Below, piece by piece: positions 2,595 through 25,196 of a stretch of DNA of 64,000 nt; within the stretch, counting starts at the first letter, position 1, and each line of letters opens with the position of its first letter. The stretch lies in the NCBI RefSeq assembly GCF_050920415.1, contig NZ_CP169309.1; one strand, 5' to 3'. Made by a program: the position numbers and the translations under genes. Source of the stretch: Escherichia coli (GTDB lineage Bacteria; Pseudomonadota; Gammaproteobacteria; Enterobacterales; Enterobacteriaceae). Under the pieces are notes generated by a model. The model had not been told where the DNA came from and ran no database searches. It saw nothing but the letters and a program-made list of their open reading frames with translations.

Positions 2595-3995
2595 ATGGAC
2601 CAGAAGCTGTTAACGGATTTCCGCTCAGAACTACTCGATTCACGTTTTGGCGCAAAGGCCATTTCTACTATCGCGGAGTCAAAACGATTTCCGCTGCACG
2701 AAATGCGCGATGATGTCGCATTCCAGATTATCAATGACGAATTATATCTTGATGGCAACGCTCGTCAGAACCTGGCCACTTTCTGCCAGACCTGGGACGA
2801 CGAAAACGTCCATAAATTGATGGATTTGTCGATCAACAAAAACTGGATCGACAAAGAAGAATATCCGCAATCTGCAGCTATCGACCTGCGTTGCGTAAAT
2901 ATGGTTGCTGACTTGTGGCATGCGCCTGCGCCGAAAAATGGTCAGGCCGTTGGCACCAACACCATTGGCTCTTCCGAGGCCTGTATGCTCGGCGGGATGG
3001 CGATGAAATGGCGTTGGCGCAAGCGTATGGAAGCCGCAGGCAAGCCAACGGATAAACCTAATCTGGTGTGCGGCCCGGTACAAATCTGCTGGCATAAATT
3101 CGCCCGTTACTGGGATGTGGAGCTGCGTGAAATCCCTATGCGTCCCGGTCAGTTGTTTATGGATCCGAAACGCATGATTGAAGCCTGCGACGAAAACACC
3201 ATCGGCGTGGTGCCGACTTTCGGTGTGACCTACACCGGTAACTATGAATTCCCGCAACCGCTGCACGATGCACTGGATAAATTCCAGGCCGACACCGGTA
3301 TCGACATCGACATGCACATCGACGCCGCCAGCGGTGGCTTCCTGGCACCGTTCGTCGCCCCGGATATCGTCTGGGACTTCCGCCTGCCTCGTGTGAAATC
3401 GATCAGTGCTTCAGGCCATAAATTCGGTCTGGCTCCGCTGGGCTGCGGCTGGGTTATCTGGCGTGATGAAGAAGCGCTGCCGCAGGAACTGGTGTTCAAC
3501 GTTGACTACCTCGGTGGTCAGATTGGGACTTTCGCCATCAACTTCTCCCGTCCGGCGGGCCAGGTGATTGCACAATACTATGAGTTTCTGCGCCTCGGTC
3601 GTGAAGGCTATACCAAAGTACAGAACGCTTCCTACCAGGTTGCCGCTTATCTGGCGGATGAAATCGCCAAACTGGGGCCGTATGAGTTCATCTGTACCGG
3701 TCGCCCGGACGAAGGCATCCCGGCGGTTTGCTTCAAACTGAAAGATGGTGAAGACCCGGGATACACCCTCTACGACCTCTCTGAACGTCTGCGCCTGCGC
3801 GGCTGGCAGGTTCCGGCCTTCACCCTCGGCGGTGAAGCGACCGATATCGTGGTGATGCGCATTATGTGCCGTCGCGGCTTCGAAATGGACTTTGCTGAAC
3901 TGTTACTGGAAGACTACAAAGCCTCCCTGAAATACCTCAGCGATCACCCGAAACTGCAGGGTATAGCCCAGCAGAACAGCTTTAAACATACCTAA
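2595..3995 (+). CDS. gadA: Glutamate decarboxylase alpha, 466 aa
   Basis: [19 protein letters not shown]... recognised; AAGGAG RBS at 2583-2588; ORF-track ORF begins 21 codons upstream at 2532 but the RBS-backed ATG is 2595. Confidence 0.96.
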
Positions 3996-4363
3996 TAACA
4001 TAATGTTGTAAAAACCGAATGCCCCGACCTTCAAAAACAGGTGGGGCATTCGGTTACTTATTAATGCAATAATATATTGGCTGTTTATTCATCGTGTTGA
4101 TAAGATATATGTTATATGAATGTTATTAAGGGTGGCGAGACCGTTTAATATCACAATAAGGGATTATTTGCTTACTAATAATTCCTCTGCGTTTTAAACG
4201 TCTTTTTTTGTATTATAAATCCAGTTATCCAGCCCGACTATCATCACACATCATCATCCTGTTTTCCCGCTTCGTTTAAATTTATTTATCAATCAATTTG
4301 ACTTAAGAGGGCGGCGTGCTACATTAATAAACAGTAATATGTTTATGTAATATTAAGCCGACT

Positions 4364-6646: not shown

Positions 6647-9600
6647 TTACGCTTTTTTAAAGCGGGCAAAGAGATGTTCCACTACAACGAAAAAGACTGG
6701 AACGAAGTAAATGGCCAGCACTGTTGCGGCAAACATCCCGCCCATCACGCCGGTACCTACCGCGTTTTGCGCGCCGGAACCGGCACCGTGGCTGATTACC
6801 AGCGGCAACACGCCGAGAATAAAGGCCAGAGAGGTCATCAGGATTGGGCGTAAACGCATCCGCGCCGCTTCGATGATTGCCTCTATCGGCGTTTTCCCTT
6901 CTTTCTGCATCATCTCAACGGCAAATTCGACGATCAGGATGGCGTTCTTGGCGGAAAGCCCGATGGTAGTCAGCAAACCAACCTGGAAGTAGACGTCATT
7001 ACTTAAGCCGCGCAGATCGGTGGCCAGTAATGCGCCAACGACACCTAACGGTACAACCAACATCACCGAGAACGGAATTGACCAGCTCTCATAAAGTGCG
7101 GCAAGGGCGAGGAACACCACGACCAGTGAAATGGCATACAGCGCGGGAGCCTGGTTTGAGGATAACGCTTCCTGATACGACAGTCCGGTCCACGAGTAGC
7201 CGACGCCTGCCGGAAGTTTAGCGACCAGGTCTGCCATAAATTTCATAGCGTCACCGGTACTTTTCCCGGCCGCCGCTTCACCTAAAATCTCCATTGACGG
7301 GATGCCGTTGTAGCGTTCCAGTCGCGGTGAACCATAGGTCCATTCGGTAGACGAATAGGCCGAAAGCGGTGCCATCGTGCCAGAGGCGTTGCGTACATAC
7401 CACTGGTTGATGTTATCCGGCAACATACGGAACGGCGTGCCTGCCTGGACATACACTTTTTTCACCCGCCCCTGGTTGAGGAAGTCGTTCACGTAGCTGC
7501 TGCCGAAGGCGGTGGAAATTGTCTGGTTGATATCAGACAGCGCCACACCCATTGCCTCGGCTTTCGCGGCGTTGACGTTCACTTTGAACATCGGCGTATC
7601 TTCCAGTCCGTTCGGGCGTACCCCGGTGACCTGATTCGGTGATTGCGCTGCCAGTGATAATAGCTCGTTTCGCGCCTGGGTCAGTTTTTCGTGCCCCAGG
7701 TTACCGTTGTCCAGCAGTTCCATATCAAAACCTGACGCGGTACCCAGTTCAGCCACCGCGGGTAAGTTGAACGGGAAGACGACGGCTTTATTGATACTGC
7801 TTAACGCAATCATTGCCCGCTGAATGATCGCGGTAACCGAGTTTTCCTCACCGACACGTTCAGACCACGGTTTGAGGCTGATAAACGCCAGACCGTTGTT
7901 TTGCCCCTGGCCACTGAAGCCAAAGCCGCCAACGGTAAACACCGACTGAACATTATCTTTCTCTTTTGTCAGATAATAATCAGTCACCTGTTGCAGCACT
8001 TTCTTGGTGTTAACCATGGTTGCACCGGAAGGTAACTGCGCGGTGGTCATAAATACCCCCTGATCCTCTTCTGGTAAGAAAGAGGTCGGCGTACGCAGGA
8101 ACAGCACCGCCATCCCGGCGCAAATCAGCAGGTAGACCACCATGTAGCGACCGGTACAACGCAACAGCGAGCGGGTGCTGTCGGTATAGTGATGAGTCGA
8201 TTTTTCAAACAGCGTGTTGAAGCGTGCGAACAGGGCGTTAGGTTTGTGACCGCCTTCCGGCGCGGCTTTCAGAATGGTGGCGCACAGGGCAGGGGTCAGG
8301 CTCATTGCCACAAATACTGAAAGCAGCATCGAGGAGATCAGCGTGATGGAGAACTGTCGGTAGATCTCCCCGGTTGCACCGCTCATAAAGGCCATCGGCA
8401 TAAACACTGCGGAAAGAACAACGGCAATCCCGACCAGCGCACGTTGGATCTGCCCCATCGATTTATGCGTCGCTTCCTTCGGCGGTAGTTTATCTTCCGC
8501 AATGACACGCTCGACGTTCTCCACCACCACGATGGCGTCATCCACCAGTAACCCTATCGCCAGCACCATCCCGAACATAGTTAACGTGTTGATGGTGAAA
8601 CCGACCGCCGACAAGATCGCAAACGTCCCGAGAATAACCACCGGTACGGCAATCGTCGGGATGATTGTGGCGCGGAAATTCTGCAAAAACAGATACATGA
8701 CCAGGAAGACGAGGATGATAGCCTCAACCAGCGTTTTGAAAACTTCCTGAATAGAAATTTTGATAAACGGTGTGGTGTCGTAAGGATAAACCGTCTTCAG
8801 GCTTGCGGGGAAATAAGCCGATAAACGGTTCAGCTCCTCTTTCACCGCTCGCGAGGTATCCAGGGCGTTTGCTCCGGTAGCCAGTTTGATGGCGATCCCG
8901 GCAGCAGGTTTGCCGTTATAGCGCGCCACGGTGGAATAATCTTCCGCCCCAAGTTCGACGCGGGCGACATCACGCAGCAGTACTTGCGAACCATCTTGCT
9001 GAACTTTCAACAGGATTTTGCCAAATTCTTCCGGCGTTTGCAGACGCGTCTGCACAATGATCGAGGCGTTCAGTTGCTGGTCTGCCGCCTGTGGCATGCC
9101 ACCCAGTTGACCACCAGAAATCTGGTTGTTTTGCACCTTAATCTGGGAAATAACATCGGAAGGTACCAGGTTGTATTTATTGAGTTTTTGCGGGTCCAGC
9201 CAGATACGCATGGCATACTCGGAACCAAAGAGTTGTACGCTACCAACGCCCGCGGTACGGCTTAGCGGGTCTTTGATATTAGACGCTACATAGTCCGCGA
9301 TATCGTACTGGTTGAGACTGCCGTTATCAGAAATAAACGCCGCTACCATCAGGATATTACTGCTCGACTTATCGACGCTAATACCCTGCTGCTGCACCGC
9401 TTCAGGTAATGAAGGCATAGCGAGTTGCAGTTTATTTTGCACCTGAACCTGCGCGATATCAGGCGATGTCCCCGTCTCGAAGGTCAGAGTGATGGAGGCA
9501 TTACCCGCCGCATCGCTGGTTGAAGACATGTACATCAGGCCATCAAGCCCATTCATATTTTGCTCAATCACCTGAGTGACCGAGTCTTCTACCGTTTGCG

Positions 9601-16459: not shown

Positions 16460-17683
16460 TTATGGGGTTATATTCTGGTAATGATTTGATAAGCGAATTC
16501 TTTTGCCAGTTGGTATTTCTATTTCCACCCCATAATTTATAGTTTTTTCATCAGGTAGCGATCTCTTTAAATAAGGTGCGTATGACATTTTTTTAGGATG
16601 AAACGTATCGTGTTGAAATATTTCGAATTGATATTCAGACATTTCTGCCCATGTTTGAATTTTATTGTATCGGGAGAGTGTCGTAAAGGCTTTAACTTGC
16701 TTATAACATTGTTTTTGGAATTCTTGCTGATATTTTATTATGTCGTTGTATGAAAGATTATTTACCCTGGTTTCTAATAATTCTATTATTGTCGAAGCAA
16801 TTTCCGCTTTTGCTCTTAAAGAGTTGTCATTAATGGTTAATAATGTTGAAAATAAACCATTGATTTGTTTGTCAACATATTGTTCATCTTTATGTAATTT
16901 TGTGATAGGGTTTTCCTTATGTGAAAAAATAGTATCAAATAAATTTGCGTCAGTGAAGTTTACATTAAGTAGATCTTCGAAATAAAACCTTGACAAGGTT
17001 AGAACGAACCCGGACAGGTCCTGTCCTGTCATATTGAAATCAATAAAGTTGGTTCCAGCAAAGACTTTCATCCTGTTTTCATTTTTACTGTGCTCAATAT
17101 ACAACCTTGTCATTTTTTGGTACAAGCGTTGAATATCTTTTATATCAGTTGGTAGATCAGTTCGTTGCCCAGAAAAATTTTTATTTTCGGAAGAAACGGT
17201 TTGGACACTGAATCTTACTGGTATTCCCTCTTCTACGAGAATTTTAGTTATGATTGGCTTATTGGGCTTAGGATTAAAGACAACAATGATTTTAGATTCA
17301 GAGTTTTTATTCTTTTCGTATCTAATGTTATTAATCTGATTAAGTATTGATTGTGTCTGTTGCGTAAGTGGTGTCGAACTTATCGTTTCAATGTTATTAA
17401 TAAGTTTTACAAGTTGAGCCACAACTTTTGAGTAGTCTGCATTTGTATATGTGGTGTTCGTGTGGCACGCATTAATTTGTTGGAGTTGTTGTTTCGCTAA
17501 ATCAAATTGTTCAGCGTTATATCCTTCTTCAGACAATGAAAAATTAACGGGTTGCTGTTCTTCCTGATTATCACAAGGCCACATCGGTGTGTTTGGTGTT
17601 TTAACATTGTCGGTATCTGTTGTGCGGTTATAAATATCGCCGTGATATGTGTTTATCATACCTGGGGTAAAGTCAATTGACAT
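16460..17683 (-). CDS. yhiS: YhiS, uncharacterised protein, 407 aa; intact here (IS5-disrupted pseudogene in K-12 MG1655)
   Basis: Single 407-aa ORF in a strongly AT-rich block; position between slp and ars genes matches yhiS; no IS5 sequence present. Confidence 0.8.
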
Positions 17684-18263
17684 AACATTCCTTATTGTTC
17701 ATCTATTTCGCTAAATTTTTGCAAATCGGAGAATTAGAACAGGAATGGATTTTCTTCTACGCGGAAATAAACACAATGCGTCATATCTTCCTGATATAAT
17801 TACCTTTAACTTCCCTTTCATTTCCACCCGGTAATATTTGTGTATAAAAAAAGGGCAGTGATAGTATCGTAAAGGAAAACATTAACAACTATCAAAAAGC
17901 GCTCATTTTAAAAAGTTATGATGTTCTCCGATAGTGTGTGAAGTGATATTTTTGTGATGTTTTAGATGTGTAATAATGAACCAGGTTGAAGTGTATTTAA
18001 AAATGTGTTGTATTGGCGACTGAAATCTGCCCTTTAAAAGGGGGGATAGCACTGAGACAAAGAGGCATTGCTTCTCCGATAAAATGTCAGAGAAGCATGA
18101 TTGCGTGGTGATTGTCGATTGATGACTTACTGACGGATCCGTCATCATTCTCAAAGCATTAGTTAAGTTATTTGTGATTTTTAAGGATTATCCTATCTAT
18201 GATTTTCTACTCAGAAGGATAAGACACTCACAATGCTCCTTATAGTTTACTGCTGGCATCTAT

Positions 18264-19277
18264 TTAAAATAGCATTTGAGTCAAATAGCCCATCAAGATA
18301 GCCATACCTAAGATAACCGTCAGGAATGCAACTATCATCGGTATTCTGAACATTGATTTAAGTAATATCACTTCCGTCAGGCTTGCTCCGGCACTGCCGA
18401 TGATTAATGCCATTAATGCTCCCGGACCCATTCCTTTTGTCATCAGAACAGATGCCAGAGGGATAACCGCCTCTGCCCGGATATACAGCGGGATTCCGAC
18501 AACGGCGCTCAATGGGATGGCGAAGGGATTATCTGCCCCTGCATGAGCGGCAATCCACTCTGAGGGAATAAAGCCATAAATAAAAGAGCCTATTAATACC
18601 CCTAACAAAAGATATGGCAGTACATCTTTAAACTGTTGCAACGCATCTTTGGTGGCTAGTTTTATGGGATTAATACTTACCACAGCTTTGGTACTGCAAC
18701 AGTTTACTACAGGTTTCTCAATGGCTTTAGCCGCTGGACTACAGCAACTCACTTTTATTGGCGTATAAGTCGTCCCCGGCGAAGTTTTGGCTGGAGAGCA
18801 ACAATTTGCTGATGAGCTTTTACTGGCAATGATATGACGTTCAAATCTCAGAGAATCCAGGATAATACTGGCAAGTACGGAGACGCCGGCGGCGATAATC
18901 GCGTACAACAAGGTAACTTTCCAACCAAAGGTCACCCACATTAACCCGACGATAATGGGATTAAGTAACGGTGAAACAAATAAAAAAGTGAGAGTCGGAC
19001 CAAACCCGGCTTTCGCTGACAACAATCCACGTAGCATGGGTATTGTCGAGCAACTACAGAACGGGGTAACGGCTCCCAACAGAGCAGCCAGGAGATAGCC
19101 TCTCCCTTTTCTGGCCCCCATCATCTGCTGGATTTTATGGTCTGGCACCTTTTGTCTTATCAGGCTGACACCGGCACTAATCACTATAAACAGCAAAGAA
19201 AGCTCGACGGCGAGAAACACAAACATCTCTGCGGCATCTTGCAGCATCGCAAGCCAACTACTCATAAGTAACCTCAT
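18264..19277 (-). CDS. ArsP-family (DUF318) permease, putative organoarsenical efflux permease, 337 aa
   Basis: Polytopic membrane protein with TPFCSCSTIP motif (ArsP signature TPFcSCSxxP) and Cys-rich central loop (CCSP...SCCSP...NCCS); not present at this position in K-12. Confidence 0.75.
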   Translation of the reverse strand: MRLLMSSWLAMLQDAAEMFVFLAVELSLLFIVISAGVSLIRQKVPDHKIQQMMGARKGRGYLLAALLGAVTPFCSCSTIPMLRGLLSAKAGFGPTLTFLFVSPLLNPIIVGLMWVTFGWKVTLLYAIIAAGVSVLASIILDSLRFERHIIASKSSSANCCSPAKTSPGTTYTPIKVSCCSPAAKAIEKPVVNCCSTKAVVSINPIKLATKDALQQFKDVLPYLLLGVLIGSFIYGFIPSEWIAAHAGADNPFAIPLSAVVGIPLYIRAEAVIPLASVLMTKGMGPGALMALIIGSAGASLTEVILLKSMFRIPMIVAFLTVILGMAILMGYLTQMLF

Positions 19278-21495: not shown

Positions 21496-21849
21496 TTAAC
21501 TACAAATATTCTTACTGTCTGCGGAACAATTTTGTCTGGCGAGGTTACGGACAATCACCTGAACCTTTTCCTGTTCGCATCGCCAGGCCTGCTCAATAAT
21601 TTTCGCCGCCCATGCTGGAATATGCGGCGATAAACGGTAATGAACCCACTTTCCTTGCTTGCGGTCCAGCAATAGCCCACTTTCACGCAGTAATGCCAGA
21701 TGGCGGGAGATCTTGGGCTGCGACTGATCGAGGGCAGTGCACAGATCGCAGACGCATAACTCTCCCAGTTCGCTGAGCAGTAAAACGATGCCCAGACGGG
21801 TTTCATCGGCAAGAATTTTGAAGAGTTGGATGGGTAACAGAAATGACAT
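21496..21849 (-). CDS. arsR: Arsenic-responsive repressor ArsR, 117 aa
   Basis: ORF track 117 aa; ELCVCDLC metalloid-binding motif; recognised. Confidence 0.95.
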   Translation of the reverse strand: MSFLLPIQLFKILADETRLGIVLLLSELGELCVCDLCTALDQSQPKISRHLALLRESGLLLDRKQGKWVHYRLSPHIPAWAAKIIEQAWRCEQEKVQVIVRNLARQNCSADSKNICS

Positions 21850-22002
21850 ATTGCGCTCCTGATTGTTGCACTTAGTGTCTCTCTTCGAAGCGGATAAGTC
21901 AAAAACATATATGTTTTAACGAATGCATAAGTGCAAAAGTAAGTAATAGGTGTGAATTTTGAGTTGGGTATTCATTTGAAAGGAAGGCTGAATCAGGATG
22001 TA

Positions 22003-22088
22003 AAAAAACCGACTTTGCGTCGGTTTTTTACTCTTCAGCCAGAGTTGGTGGCTCTGGCTGGAGTGAGAATGCCCACATCTAACGGTTC
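22003..22088 (-). ncRNA. agrA: AgrA small RNA (dinQ-antisense family); boundaries approximate
   Basis: First copy of a roughly 120-bp repeat; minus-strand intrinsic terminator hairpin ccgactttgcgtcgg plus U-run at 22002-22029. Confidence 0.55.
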
Positions 22089-22235
22089 AATACTATTAGC
22101 CAGTGGCTAACATTGCAAGCGTTAGCGATTTCTTCAGCTGGCGAAGGGACAGTTTGCTATACATGGTGGTGAAAGAGGATTGATATACTTTCATCGGGTC
22201 GCTGCCGTACCAAGCCTTGTCCGAATCCGGACGTA

Positions 22236-22321
22236 AAAAAACCGACTTACGTCGGTTTTTTTACTCTTCAGCCCTGAGTTGGTGGCCCTGGCTGGAGTGA
22301 GATAGCCATCATCTAACACAT
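22236..22321 (-). ncRNA. agrB: AgrB small RNA, antitoxin-type antisense regulator of dinQ; boundaries approximate
   Basis: Second repeat copy; minus-strand RNA is complementary to a segment in the dinQ 5' UTR (22483-22515); terminator hairpin 22238-22263. Confidence 0.55.
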
Positions 22322-22381
22322 CAATGCTAATACCATACTGAAACTATTGCAAGGACATGCTGGTTTTATAACCCGCAAGTA

Positions 22382-22397
22382 CTGTATGATTATCCAG
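22382..22397 (+). promoter_or_regulatory. LexA box upstream of dinQ
   Basis: CTGTATGATTATCCAG matches the CTGT-N8-ACAG SOS box. Confidence 0.7.
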
Positions 22398-22590
22398 TTG
22401 GCTCTGAGGCATTTTCACTCTGGCAATGCGCATAAACGCTTTCAAAGTCCTGATCAGTGGTACGGGTGGTGCCGTTAACTGATGCTCTGGCCGGAGTGAG
22501 ATAGTCGTCATCTAACAATGAGGCATGCGCCGTGACAGGCAGTGGATGAGTAAGCGGATGCATTCTCACTCCATCGCATGGAGAAAACGG

Positions 22591-22674
22591 GTGATTGATA
22601 AAGCAATCATCGTTCTTGGGGCGTTAATTGCGCTGCTGGAACTGATCCGCTTCCTGCTTCAGCTTCTGAACTGA
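22591..22674 (+). CDS. dinQ: DinQ, 27-aa damage-inducible membrane toxin peptide (type I toxin)
   Basis: GTG-initiated ORF encoding MIDKAIIVLGALIALLELIRFLLQLLN; LexA box upstream; agr antisense repeats adjacent. Confidence 0.75.
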   Translation: MIDKAIIVLGALIALLELIRFLLQLLN

Positions 22675-22727
22675 TAGCGGAAACGTAACTAAGGGCAAAG
22701 AGCACACCACTCTTTGCCCTTTAACAT

Positions 22728-24080
22728 TTAACGCATGGTAACGAACTCTTCTGCCGCCGTTGGGTGAATGGCGACGGTATTGTCGAAGTCTTTTTTGGTT
22801 GCGCCCATCTTCAGCGCCACTGCGAAGCCCTGCAACATTTCATCCATACCAAAGCCAATGCCATGAATACCGACAATCTTCTCTTCCGGTCCAACGCACA
22901 CCAGCTTCATGCGGCACGGCTGGCGGTGAGTGGTGACGGCGGTATACATCGCGGTGAAAGAGGATTTATACACTTTCACCTGATCGTCGCCGTATTGCTC
23001 GCGCGCCTGCGGTTCCGTTAAACCAACAGTCCCAATCGGCGGATGGCTGAAGACCACGGTCGGAATATTGCTGTAATCCAGATGCTCATCCGGCTTGTTA
23101 TTAAACAGGCGTTCAGAGAGGCGGCGGCCTGCTGCAACTGCCACCGGTGTCAGTTCCACTGCGCCCGTGTTATCGCCCACCGCGTAAATACCTTCAACGC
23201 TGGTATTTTGATATTTATCGACGACGATATAGCCTTTTTCGTTGGTTTTTACGCCAGCGGCTTCGAGGTTAATGTTGTCATTGGCAGGCTCGCGACCAAT
23301 CGCCCAAATCAGGCAATCCACCGTTTCACTGCGACCATCTTCCAGCTCCAGCGTCAGGCTGCCATCGGCATTTTTCACTACCGCTTTCGGGATGGCGTTG
23401 GTGTGCAACTGCGGACCTTCGGCGTTCATCACTTCGACCAGCGTTTCAGAGATCATCGGGTCGAAGCTGCGCAGCGGCGCATGTTTACGAACAAACAGAT
23501 GCGTTTTCGCGCCGAGGCCGTTAATCACGCCCGCCAGTTCAACGGCGATGTAACCCGCGCCAACAACCGCTACACGCTCTGGCAAAGCAGGAAGGGCGAA
23601 GAAGCCATCGGAATCAATACCGTATTCCACGCCCGGAATATCCGGGTGGCTCGGGCGACCGCCGGTGGCGATCAGGATATGATCGGCCGTGATGGTTTCG
23701 CCGTTTACTTCAATTGTTTTGGCATCAACGAAGCGGGCAAAGCCTTTGATTACATCAACGTTATTTTTACCGAGCACGTTTTCATAGGAGGTATGAATAC
23801 GGTCGATATAGGCGGTACGGCTGGCGATCAACGTTTCCCAGTTGAACTTATTGATGGTGGTATCGAAACCATAATCCGGGCCGTACATGTGGATCGCTTC
23901 ACGGATTTGCGCCGCGTGCCACATCACTTTTTTCGGCACGCAGCCAACATTCACGCAGGTGCCGCCCAGTTCTTTGGCTTCAATCAGCGCGCATTTCTGA
24001 CCGTACATAGCCGCGCGGTTGATGGAGGCGATACCGCCGCTGCCGCCGCCGATGGCGATGTAATCATAGTGTTTAGTCAT
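22728..24080 (-). CDS. gor: Glutathione reductase, 450 aa
   Basis: ORF track 450 aa; FAD motif GGGSGG and redox-active CVNVGC. Confidence 0.96.
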
Positions 24081-24151
24081 GACATATTGTCCTTATCGTT
24101 GATTACCGCGATTGTAGCGCGAGACGTAATAGGTGCCAGCGATGGCTGCAA

Positions 24152-24994
24152 TTACTCTGGCACGATCCAGCTTACGGTGGCATGCCCGGTGCCAGCCGGA
24201 ACCAGTTTGCTGTGCAACCACGGCAACACGTTATTCATCTGCTGTTCCAGTTTCCACGGCGGGTTAATCACAATCATGCCGGAAGCGGTCATGCCACGGC
24301 GATCGCTGTCTGGCAGTACCGCCAGTTCAATTTGCATAATCTTGCGAATACCGGTCGCTTCCAGCTCGTGGATCATGCGCTTGATTTGCTGACGCAGCAC
24401 CACTGGATACCACAGCGCGTAGACGCCTGTGGCAAAACGTTTATATCCCTCGTTAATGCCGCTGACCACCGCCTGATAGTCGGTTTTCATTTCATACGGC
24501 GGGTCGATAAGGATTAAACCACGGCGAGAAACCGGCGGCAGCTTGGCTTTAAGCTGCTGGAAACCGTCGGCTTTTTCCACACGCGCACGGCTGTCTTTCT
24601 GAAATTCAGCACGCAGCAACGGGTAATCGCTCGGGTGCAGCTCGGTCAGTTGCAGACTGTCCTGCTCGCGCAGTAGCTGGCGAGCAATCAACGGCGAACC
24701 TGGGTAGTAACGTAACTGCCCGCTACGGTTAAAATGTTCCACCACGCTGATGTACGGTTCCAGCTCCGCAGGCAGATCGTCCTGCTGCCAGATACGGGCG
24801 ATACCTTCGAGATATTCGCCGGTACGCTCGGCATGTTCACTGCCTAACTGATAACGCCCCGCACCCGCGTGGGTATCCAGATAGAGAAACGGTTTATCTT
24901 TCTCTTTCAGTGACTCGATGATCAGGCTCTGAACGGTATGTTTAAGGACGTCGGCGTGGTTGCCAGCGTGAAAGCTGTGGCGATAACTGAGCAT
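24152..24994 (-). CDS. rlmJ: 23S rRNA m6A2030 methyltransferase RlmJ (YhiR), 280 aa
   Basis: Recognised from MLSYRHSFHAGNHADVLKH...; track ORF extends 17 codons upstream. Confidence 0.9.
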   Translation of the reverse strand: MLSYRHSFHAGNHADVLKHTVQSLIIESLKEKDKPFLYLDTHAGAGRYQLGSEHAERTGEYLEGIARIWQQDDLPAELEPYISVVEHFNRSGQLRYYPGSPLIARQLLREQDSLQLTELHPSDYPLLRAEFQKDSRARVEKADGFQQLKAKLPPVSRRGLILIDPPYEMKTDYQAVVSGINEGYKRFATGVYALWYPVVLRQQIKRMIHELEATGIRKIMQIELAVLPDSDRRGMTASGMIVINPPWKLEQQMNNVLPWLHSKLVPAGTGHATVSWIVPE

Positions 24995-25196
24995 GGGTAA
25001 AGGTGTTCCGGTAAGTAAAAATCGGCCCGTATTCGGGGCGCACAAAAGCCTATCAGGACAGTATACCGAAAAGAGGCCGTCGCCGCGAAAGCGTAACGTT
25101 TCTCATTGAAATTCACTACACTTAACCCCATGCTACACACATTATGTAAAGCGCCTGTTGAGCGCTTCCTTAACCTCTTTAACCAGGACTGCGCTA

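Follow-up and report, generated by a model that had tools for sequence, protein, structure and literature searches.

The dinQ-agrAB locus of Escherichia coli carries, between its two antitoxin sRNA genes, a decayed piece of the 3' coding region of the neighbouring glutathione reductase gene gor. In the 64,000-nt stretch of E. coli DNA that was analysed (contig NZ_CP169309.1 of assembly GCF_050920415.1, hereafter the window), the piece occupies 22137..22209 on the minus strand. This gor relic is a feature of a known kind, a duplication scar or pseudogene fragment, and it supports and sharpens the existing presumption of a tandem duplication at the locus. It probably goes back to a tandem duplication of about 0.8 kb, with a unit of agr, dinQ and the 3' 270 nt of gor, that preceded the split of E. 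coli and E. albertii and was followed by a deletion of about 0.55 kb, which left agrB and the relic. We infer a single duplication event, its timing and the loss of a second dinQ from the comparisons described below.

The gor-derived segment and its surroundings

The relic lies in the 878-nt spacer that separates arsR (21496-21849, minus strand) from gor (gorA), the intact gene of the 450-aa glutathione reductase (22728..24080, minus strand). Feature annotation is that of RefSeq for E. coli strain MFDS1022581, which is 100% identical across the arsR-gor region; dinQ and gor are also present in the list of open reading frames (ORFs) of the window. The minus strand of the spacer bears two agr repeat units, each composed of a terminator, an sRNA body and a promoter up to the -35 element. 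As in the K-12 reference, the arsR-proximal sRNA is named agrB (unit at 21990..22122) and the dinQ-proximal sRNA agrA (unit at 22223..22356). Both match the Rfam family AgrB (RF02891), at 22000-22082 and 22233-22316 on the minus strand, respectively. These matches flank the relic, as was claimed in an earlier reading of the window made from its letters alone (the sequence-only reading), which had placed a gor-like segment between the two agr copies. The positions between the agrB promoter and the relic (22123..22136) are a presumed deletion scar and resemble neither the dinQ region nor gor to a significant degree. On the other side, 22210..22222 (ccaagccttgtcc) joins the relic to the distal flank of the agrA unit; E. 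albertii has this flank beside its single agr as well, and Citrobacter has it in a diverged form. By alignment, a third copy of the agr repeat is located within the 5' UTR of dinQ (22462..22520, plus strand), where it is the target of the antisense RNAs according to PMC3567139. The dinQ coding sequence (22591..22674, plus strand) encodes a type I toxin of 27 aa. The K-12 reference has no annotated feature in the 149 nt that separate agrA and agrB, and RefSeq likewise has none at the relic.

The single outstanding match to gor in the whole arsR-gor spacer, as found by local alignment, is 22158-22209, the core of the relic. It aligns without gaps to gor at 22943-22994 on the same strand, with 43 of 52 positions identical (82.7%) and a score of 59. 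When the spacer is shuffled 300 times with its dinucleotides preserved and compared with gor on both strands, the best scores have a mean of 23.5 (sd 2.4) and a maximum of 35, and a Gumbel fit assigns p ~5e-9 to the observed score. A segment about 83% identical to gor and in the same orientation had been proposed at 22157-22210, and this is confirmed; the proposed gor partner (about 22933-22986) holds for orientation and identity, while its coordinates are 8-10 nt too low and should read 22941-22994. The gapped homology covers 22137-22209 of the spacer and 22919-22994 of gor (minus strand), the parental segment within the intact gene. A similarity of 22132-22152 to the end of the dinQ ORF (71% over 21 nt) is not significant and is better read as the left extension of the relic. 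The K-12 relic (NC_000913.3, 3648170-3648239) matches gor at 3647385-3647460 with p ~6e-8.

The relic corresponds to gor nucleotides ~1087-1162, or codons ~363-387 of 450, in the dimerisation domain. About 75 of the 1,353 nt of gor survive in it, and relic and gor are 75-79% identical over a 56-nt core. The minus-strand translation of the relic in the gor frame is YGSDPMKVYQSSFTTMY, 12 residues of which are identical to the 17-residue segment of Gor. This parental Gor segment matches the Pfam family Pyr_redox_dim; the relic translation, which is too short and decayed, has no Pfam match. Nor is the relic a member of the AgrB family. Against the covariance model of RF02891, with its gathering score of 40 bits, the two sRNAs on either side obtain 90 and 83.6 bits; the sole match that overlaps the relic is on the plus strand, reaches 26.5 bits (E 0.19) and is explained by a palindromic terminator. 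Judged by these scores, the gor relic is part of neither flanking sRNA.

From the arsR side, the elements of the locus run agrB, relic, agrA, dinQ, gor; relic and gor share one orientation, and so do the two agr copies. This order and orientation are as predicted by a tandem duplication of a unit composed of agr, dinQ and the 3' end of gor. The spacings are unequal, with 785 nt from relic to gor versus 233-234 nt from agrB to agrA (a difference of ~552 nt), such that the two pairs of repeats do not share one period and a later deletion of about 0.55 kb has to be invoked.

Variation and constraint among E. coli genomes

A BLAST search of 5,426 complete E. coli genomes finds the relic spacer in 3,839 (71%), and in all of the relic-bearing genomes gor is an independent second match. 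Another 1,586 of the 5,426 match the spacer query at gor alone and, thus, lack the relic (~29%). The similarity to gor is neither below chance nor missing from other strains, either of which would have spoken against the sequence-only reading. The relic occurs as two haplotypes. One, here called W, is that of the window, O157:H7 and KKa019; it is found in ~810 genomes at 95% identity or more to the window. The other, K, is that of K-12, M9, GN06156 and E69; it is found in ~3,026 genomes at 74-77% identity to the window and is marked by a 4-nt deletion. The W and K haplotypes are identical at only 36 of 52 positions (~69%), and at 53 of the 56 core positions the gor base is retained by W, by K or by both. 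The 3 remaining core positions are derived changes common to W and K. This complementary retention, together with the common derived changes, speaks for one origin and for decay that was independent thereafter; such a pattern would follow if a single gor copy, still ~95% gor-like when W and K split, decayed separately in the two lineages. The reconstructed W/K ancestor matches the window's own gor at 53 of 56 positions and the gor of the two nearest other Escherichia at 51 of 56, so that it appears nominally nearest to Escherichia gor. A foreign donor of the relic was also considered; the gor segment is too conserved across the Enterobacteriaceae to discriminate well, and Escherichia gor is nominally the closest.

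In an alignment of eight strains, no stretch of the arsR-gor spacer varies more than the relic, whose pairwise identity averages 0.82 and falls to 0.66 at the lowest; the adjoining agr promoters are conserved at 0.96-0.99. Indels of 3-4 nt in the relic differ between the haplotypes, and no ORF is conserved. The window haplotype has an ATG-initiated ORF of 32 aa on the minus strand (22194-22096 in the ORF list). Selection may be imagined to maintain the relic as an upstream or spacing element of the agrB promoter, as this 32-aa ORF or as an RNA that pairs with the gor mRNA, and some features lean that way: the relic is located ~55-125 nt upstream of the agrB start (taken as the 5' end of the Rfam match, 22082), the agrA-agrB spacer is of similar length in K-12 (149 nt) and the window (150 nt between the Rfam matches), and the ORF is in frame with its ATG in the window haplotype. 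Such a role is nevertheless highly improbable, as conservation in the spacer is lowest in the relic, which is missing from 29% of E. coli genomes and gives no Rfam or Pfam signal, while the ORF is destroyed by the 4-nt deletion of the K haplotype. Orientation also speaks against pairing, since the relic is in the sense direction relative to gor and an agrA read-through transcript could not pair with the gor mRNA. From the pattern of variation, the relic is best described as a piece of gor 3' coding sequence that has no function and decays neutrally, and no evidence of function is seen.

The agr copies that enclose the relic are themselves of mixed divergence. The promoter-proximal (5') halves of agrA and agrB are ~65% identical and copy-specific. 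The terminator-proximal (3') halves (21990-22050 and 22223-22284) are 90-96% identical within a strain, and strain-specific variants are common to both copies (ACTTTCCAG in K-12 and ACTCTTCAG in the window); this co-variation and high identity within strains indicate ongoing gene conversion of the 3' halves. Past the terminators, the distal flanks of the two units lose their similarity after a few bases. In contrast to the 65% between the promoter-proximal halves, agrA is 100% identical to the agr of E. albertii and 81% identical to that of Citrobacter. The agrB promoter region would either have changed fast after the duplication or have another origin. A plasmid origin of agrB finds no support, as the agr-like RNAs associated with plasmid dqlB have the sRNA body and not the agrB-type promoter.

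Structural variants of the locus also occur in E. coli. Strains Res13 and 536 have one agr copy and lack the relic. The single-copy alleles of E. coli combine an agrB-type distal flank with an agrA-type promoter; with this hybrid structure, the single-agr strains are deletion recombinants of the two-copy form and not ancestral. In THO-006 (3774-4244; compare window 22273-22490), an agr repeat is fused to the repeat of the dinQ 5' UTR, and the agr and dinQ/LexA promoters are deleted. The dinQ gene is probably silent in agr/dinQ-fusion strains such as THO-006. The same fusion is apparently present in a sizeable class of genomes whose match begins only at window position 22484. The agr/dinQ repeat includes a variable core of ~10 nt (GAGTGAGA-N10-ATCTAAC), present at 22051-22084, 22285-22318 and 22484-22517. 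This core co-varies between dinQ and one of the agr copies, and the matching copy differs by strain. In K-12 the dinQ core is exactly that of the agrB copy; in M9, DETEC and Res13 it is that of the copy at the agrA position; and in the window it comes nearest, with 2 mismatches, to the copy at the agrA position and is far from that at the agrB position. On these patterns, the role of cognate antitoxin may pass from one sRNA gene to the other.

The surroundings of the spacer vary as well. Strains 536 and THO-006 (B2-type) have lost arsR and arsB, and arsC adjoins the agr/dinQ region; GN06156 has an operon of the arsR-arsD-arsA type at the same place. In O157:H7 SS17, KKa019 and others, a second chromosomal place matches the arsR-gor spacer query and may be a dinQ-like paralogue. 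Within 16928-19265 of the window, an IS2 element (transposase ~17609-18837) interrupts a permease gene, as taken from the RefSeq annotation of the identical genome with coordinates shifted by an offset of 14349. The window is unusually distant from K-12 over 21496-25045, with identities of 92.9% for arsR, 96.2% for gor and 92.8% for rlmJ; gor is itself rather polymorphic among bona fide E. coli, at ~97% identity. Either old haplotypes seem to be combined in a mosaic over arsR-gor-rlmJ, or the strain seems to belong to a divergent Escherichia lineage that is classified as E. coli.

Relatives outside E. coli and the origin of the relic

Species-representative genomes scanned with Gor provide 80 enterobacterial gor loci for comparison. 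Downstream of gor, dinQ-agr is found in E. albertii, Citrobacter youngae and Citrobacter sp. On2M, each with a single agr. In Kosakonia sacchari a dinQ-like module, again with a single agr, is located 750 nt downstream of gor. In Citrobacter, a convergent gene, which we take from its C-terminal translation to be the cytochrome c peroxidase gene yhjA, has its stop codon no more than 15 nt past the agr terminator. Gor-like sequence downstream of gor is confined, among the 80 loci, to those of E. coli and E. albertii; none is detected at the 78 non-Escherichia loci, which include the dinQ-agr-bearing C. youngae, Citrobacter sp. On2M and K. sacchari. Among the non-coli Escherichia, E. albertii is the one species compared with an intact dinQ-agr region, the locus of Escherichia sp. 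MOD1-EC7003 being truncated.

The E. albertii locus has three colinear gor patches, at 250-269, 92-112 and 0-30 nt from the stop codon (combined p ~1e-6), and the last of these includes the gor stop codon itself. Thus, the original gor copy was at least 270 nt long and ran to the stop codon. The agr/gor junction of E. albertii is exactly that of E. coli (...CCGTACT / AAATTTTGTCC GAATC..., the slash marking the junction), which indicates that the gor copy was joined to the agr flank before the two species split. Past the pseudo-gor stop codon, the DNA is 96.5% identical to a phage-plasmid of E. coli (NZ_JBWKMP010000003.1); the original continuation is thus lost in E. albertii. In strain NBRC 107761 (6935-8630), this phage-plasmid DNA abuts the pseudo-gor stop codon and includes a truncated tail gene and the toxin-antitoxin pair higB/higA. 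A hairpin and T-run after the stop codon were considered as a native gor terminator and rejected, as they lie inside the truncated phage tail gene. No ars operon is present at the gor-downstream locus of E. albertii.

Relatives of the module are not restricted to chromosomes. Kristiansen et al. 2016 (PMC5066626) describe dinQ-like (dql) genes on chromosomes and plasmids. Sequences resembling the agr sRNA body and terminator are present on more than 900 plasmids, mostly conjugative, of Escherichia, Salmonella and Klebsiella; in Salmonella pATCC10720, the one plasmid read, such a sequence (701-798) adjoins the annotated DinQ-like gene dqlB (1082-1177). The sequence-only reading had suggested local duplication as the process by which the dinQ/agrAB locus arose or expanded, with gor 3' sequence taken along. 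Expansion finds support in the order and orientation of the elements and in the E. albertii junction. An origin of the locus by this route does not, because the dinQ-agr module occurs without a gor relic in Citrobacter and Kosakonia and has relatives on plasmids.

The history proposed for the locus begins with an Escherichia ancestor that would have had gor, dinQ and a single agr, as C. youngae has today. After the split from Citrobacter and before that of E. coli and E. albertii, a tandem duplication of ~0.79 kb is proposed, with a unit that would extend from just past the agr terminator, across agr and dinQ, into the last ~270 nt of gor. The product would be agr(1), dinQ', a 270-nt pseudo-gor, agr(2), dinQ and intact gor. 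In the E. coli line, a deletion of ~0.55 kb would then have taken dinQ' with its promoter and terminator, together with the last ~190 nt of pseudo-gor, leaving agr(1) as agrB, ~75 nt of pseudo-gor and agr(2) as agrA. In E. albertii, internal deletions would have shrunk pseudo-gor, and phage-plasmid DNA would have replaced everything past its stop codon. Finally, the relic has gone missing from ~29% of E. coli genomes; in the strains read, it was removed by recombination of agr with agr or of agr with the dinQ repeat. The predicted size of the duplicated block (~0.79 kb) matches the 785 nt that separate relic and gor today. The age of the relic, placed between the Citrobacter and E. albertii splits, fits a raw divergence of 21-25% as judged by typical neutral divergences. 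Alignments detect nothing left of a second dinQ, either in the interval from the agrB promoter to the relic or past the pseudo-gor stop codon of E. albertii. The divergence of agrB stands against the model: its 5' half (65% identity to agrA) differs far more than simple one-step duplication predicts, and with clock-like change the agrB copy would predate the relic, unless this half was remodelled or came from elsewhere. The early loss of similarity between the distal flanks of the two agr units is a further point against it.

A different account, which is unlikely, starts from the insertion of a cassette. A circular molecule of ~270 nt of gor 3' end, dinQ and agr would enter by a single crossover in gor, such that gor is rebuilt and its native 3' end is displaced past agr; agrB would be added later by a separate duplication of an agr unit. 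This account explains why E. albertii has a single agr followed by a gor fragment that runs to the stop codon with no dinQ' after it, and it draws on the mobility of dinQ/agr-like modules in practice, as they are sporadic in Citrobacter, shifted in Kosakonia and carried by the >900 mostly conjugative plasmids (PMC5066626). The 878-nt spacer, however, holds only dinQ and the two sRNAs between its neighbours arsR and gor, with no integrase or att-like feature, and a separate unexplained event is needed to set agrB exactly beyond the fragment. The account predicts that the displaced fragment continues into native sequence from downstream of gor; this part is deleted in E. coli, and in E. albertii phage-plasmid DNA takes its place from the stop codon on. 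In Escherichia, the 3' 300 nt of present gor are not unusually divergent when set against the other parts of the gene, and a comparison of Citrobacter with and without dinQ gives only a slight drop (94.0% vs 96.1% identity). Somewhat less probable still is the reading that dinQ-agr is a small mobile cassette that entered Escherichia without an integrase, by recombination at the gor 3' end and with a gor end of its own; on this reading the relic would be the original gor end and agrB a later or independently acquired antitoxin. A two-step amplification is doubtful to the same degree. In it, a pseudo-gor already present past agr would recombine with gor by unequal crossing-over and duplicate the dinQ-agr block, after which deletions would take dinQ' and the outer pseudo-gor. 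Direct repeats of ~270 nt are good substrates for unequal crossing-over, and repeat-mediated rearrangement is visibly active at the locus, as seen in the single-agr and agr/dinQ-fusion alleles and in the concerted 3' halves of agr. The two-step scheme, however, needs more events than one-step duplication, and the second gor remnant that it predicts on the arsR side of agrB is undetectable. A candidate for this remnant suspected by eye (TCAT.TT.AA...) is no better than shuffles when compared with the relic, the junction and gor (z -0.6 to 0.6).

A patch of 50-80 nt of gor may be copied during the repair of a break or junction, as filler DNA or by short-tract gene conversion, in an event unrelated to the duplication of agr. 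Only ~75 nt are recognisable in E. coli, with no further gor-derived sequence in the spacer, as such a patch would leave; yet it is a very improbable source, as the three colinear patches of E. albertii extend over 270 nt to the stop codon from the same junction, which shows the insert to have been long originally, and the orientation and placement fit a segmental duplication. Chance similarity has the short length of the match in its favour and nothing else. It is practically dismissed by the shuffling tests for the window, K-12 and E. albertii (p ~5e-9, 6e-8 and 1e-6, respectively), by the reading frame, which is the same as that of gor, and by the way in which W and K complement each other in the gor bases that they retain.

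The proposed tandem duplication and comparable systems

A duplication at this locus has been presumed before. In Weel-Sneve et al. 2013 (PMC3567139), where dinQ-agrAB is characterised, the sRNAs are described as "presumably" tandemly duplicated, with agrA partly degenerated. The duplication proposed here is of the same locus. It differs from that description in that the duplicated unit is larger than the sRNA gene and is dated before the E. coli/E. albertii split. As the unit reached ~270 nt into gor, it must have included dinQ. A gor fragment at dinQ-agrAB is not mentioned in the available portions of PMC3567139 or PMC5066626, and a full-text search of the literature found no gor pseudogene at the dinQ locus.

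The relic provides a physical record of how a well-studied toxin-antitoxin locus, induced by the SOS response, has evolved. With it, the duplicated block would be ~0.8 kb and include the toxin gene and the end of gor, not the antitoxin sRNA alone. A second toxin copy would have been lost with its antitoxin kept, such that agrB, the functional antitoxin of K-12, would be the orphan of the lost copy. The relic is also usable as a neutral internal clock and as a population marker, with two deep haplotypes and repeat-mediated loss in ~29% of genomes. It has no practical consequence for the function of gor or dinQ and is a minor evolutionary footnote that introduces no new mechanism.

Remnants of gene ends are known from the integration of elements into the 3' end of genes, as exemplified by icdC beside the e14 prophage in E. 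coli icd. Like icd/e14, the dinQ locus has an intact gene, an inserted block and then a displaced or duplicated 3' fragment in direct orientation. Unlike icd/e14, the block is small (~0.5 kb, dinQ and agr) and has no integrase, att sites or prophage, and a second agr copy lies past the fragment, which integration alone does not explain. Another parallel is the local tandem multiplication and subsequent decay of type I toxin/antisense RNA modules of E. coli, such as ldr/rdl, ibs/sib and hok/sok. The dinQ locus is distinguished from these by what is left of the second unit, of which only the antitoxin remains as an orphan copy, and by the piece of a neighbouring housekeeping gene that was dragged along and marks the boundaries of the duplication.
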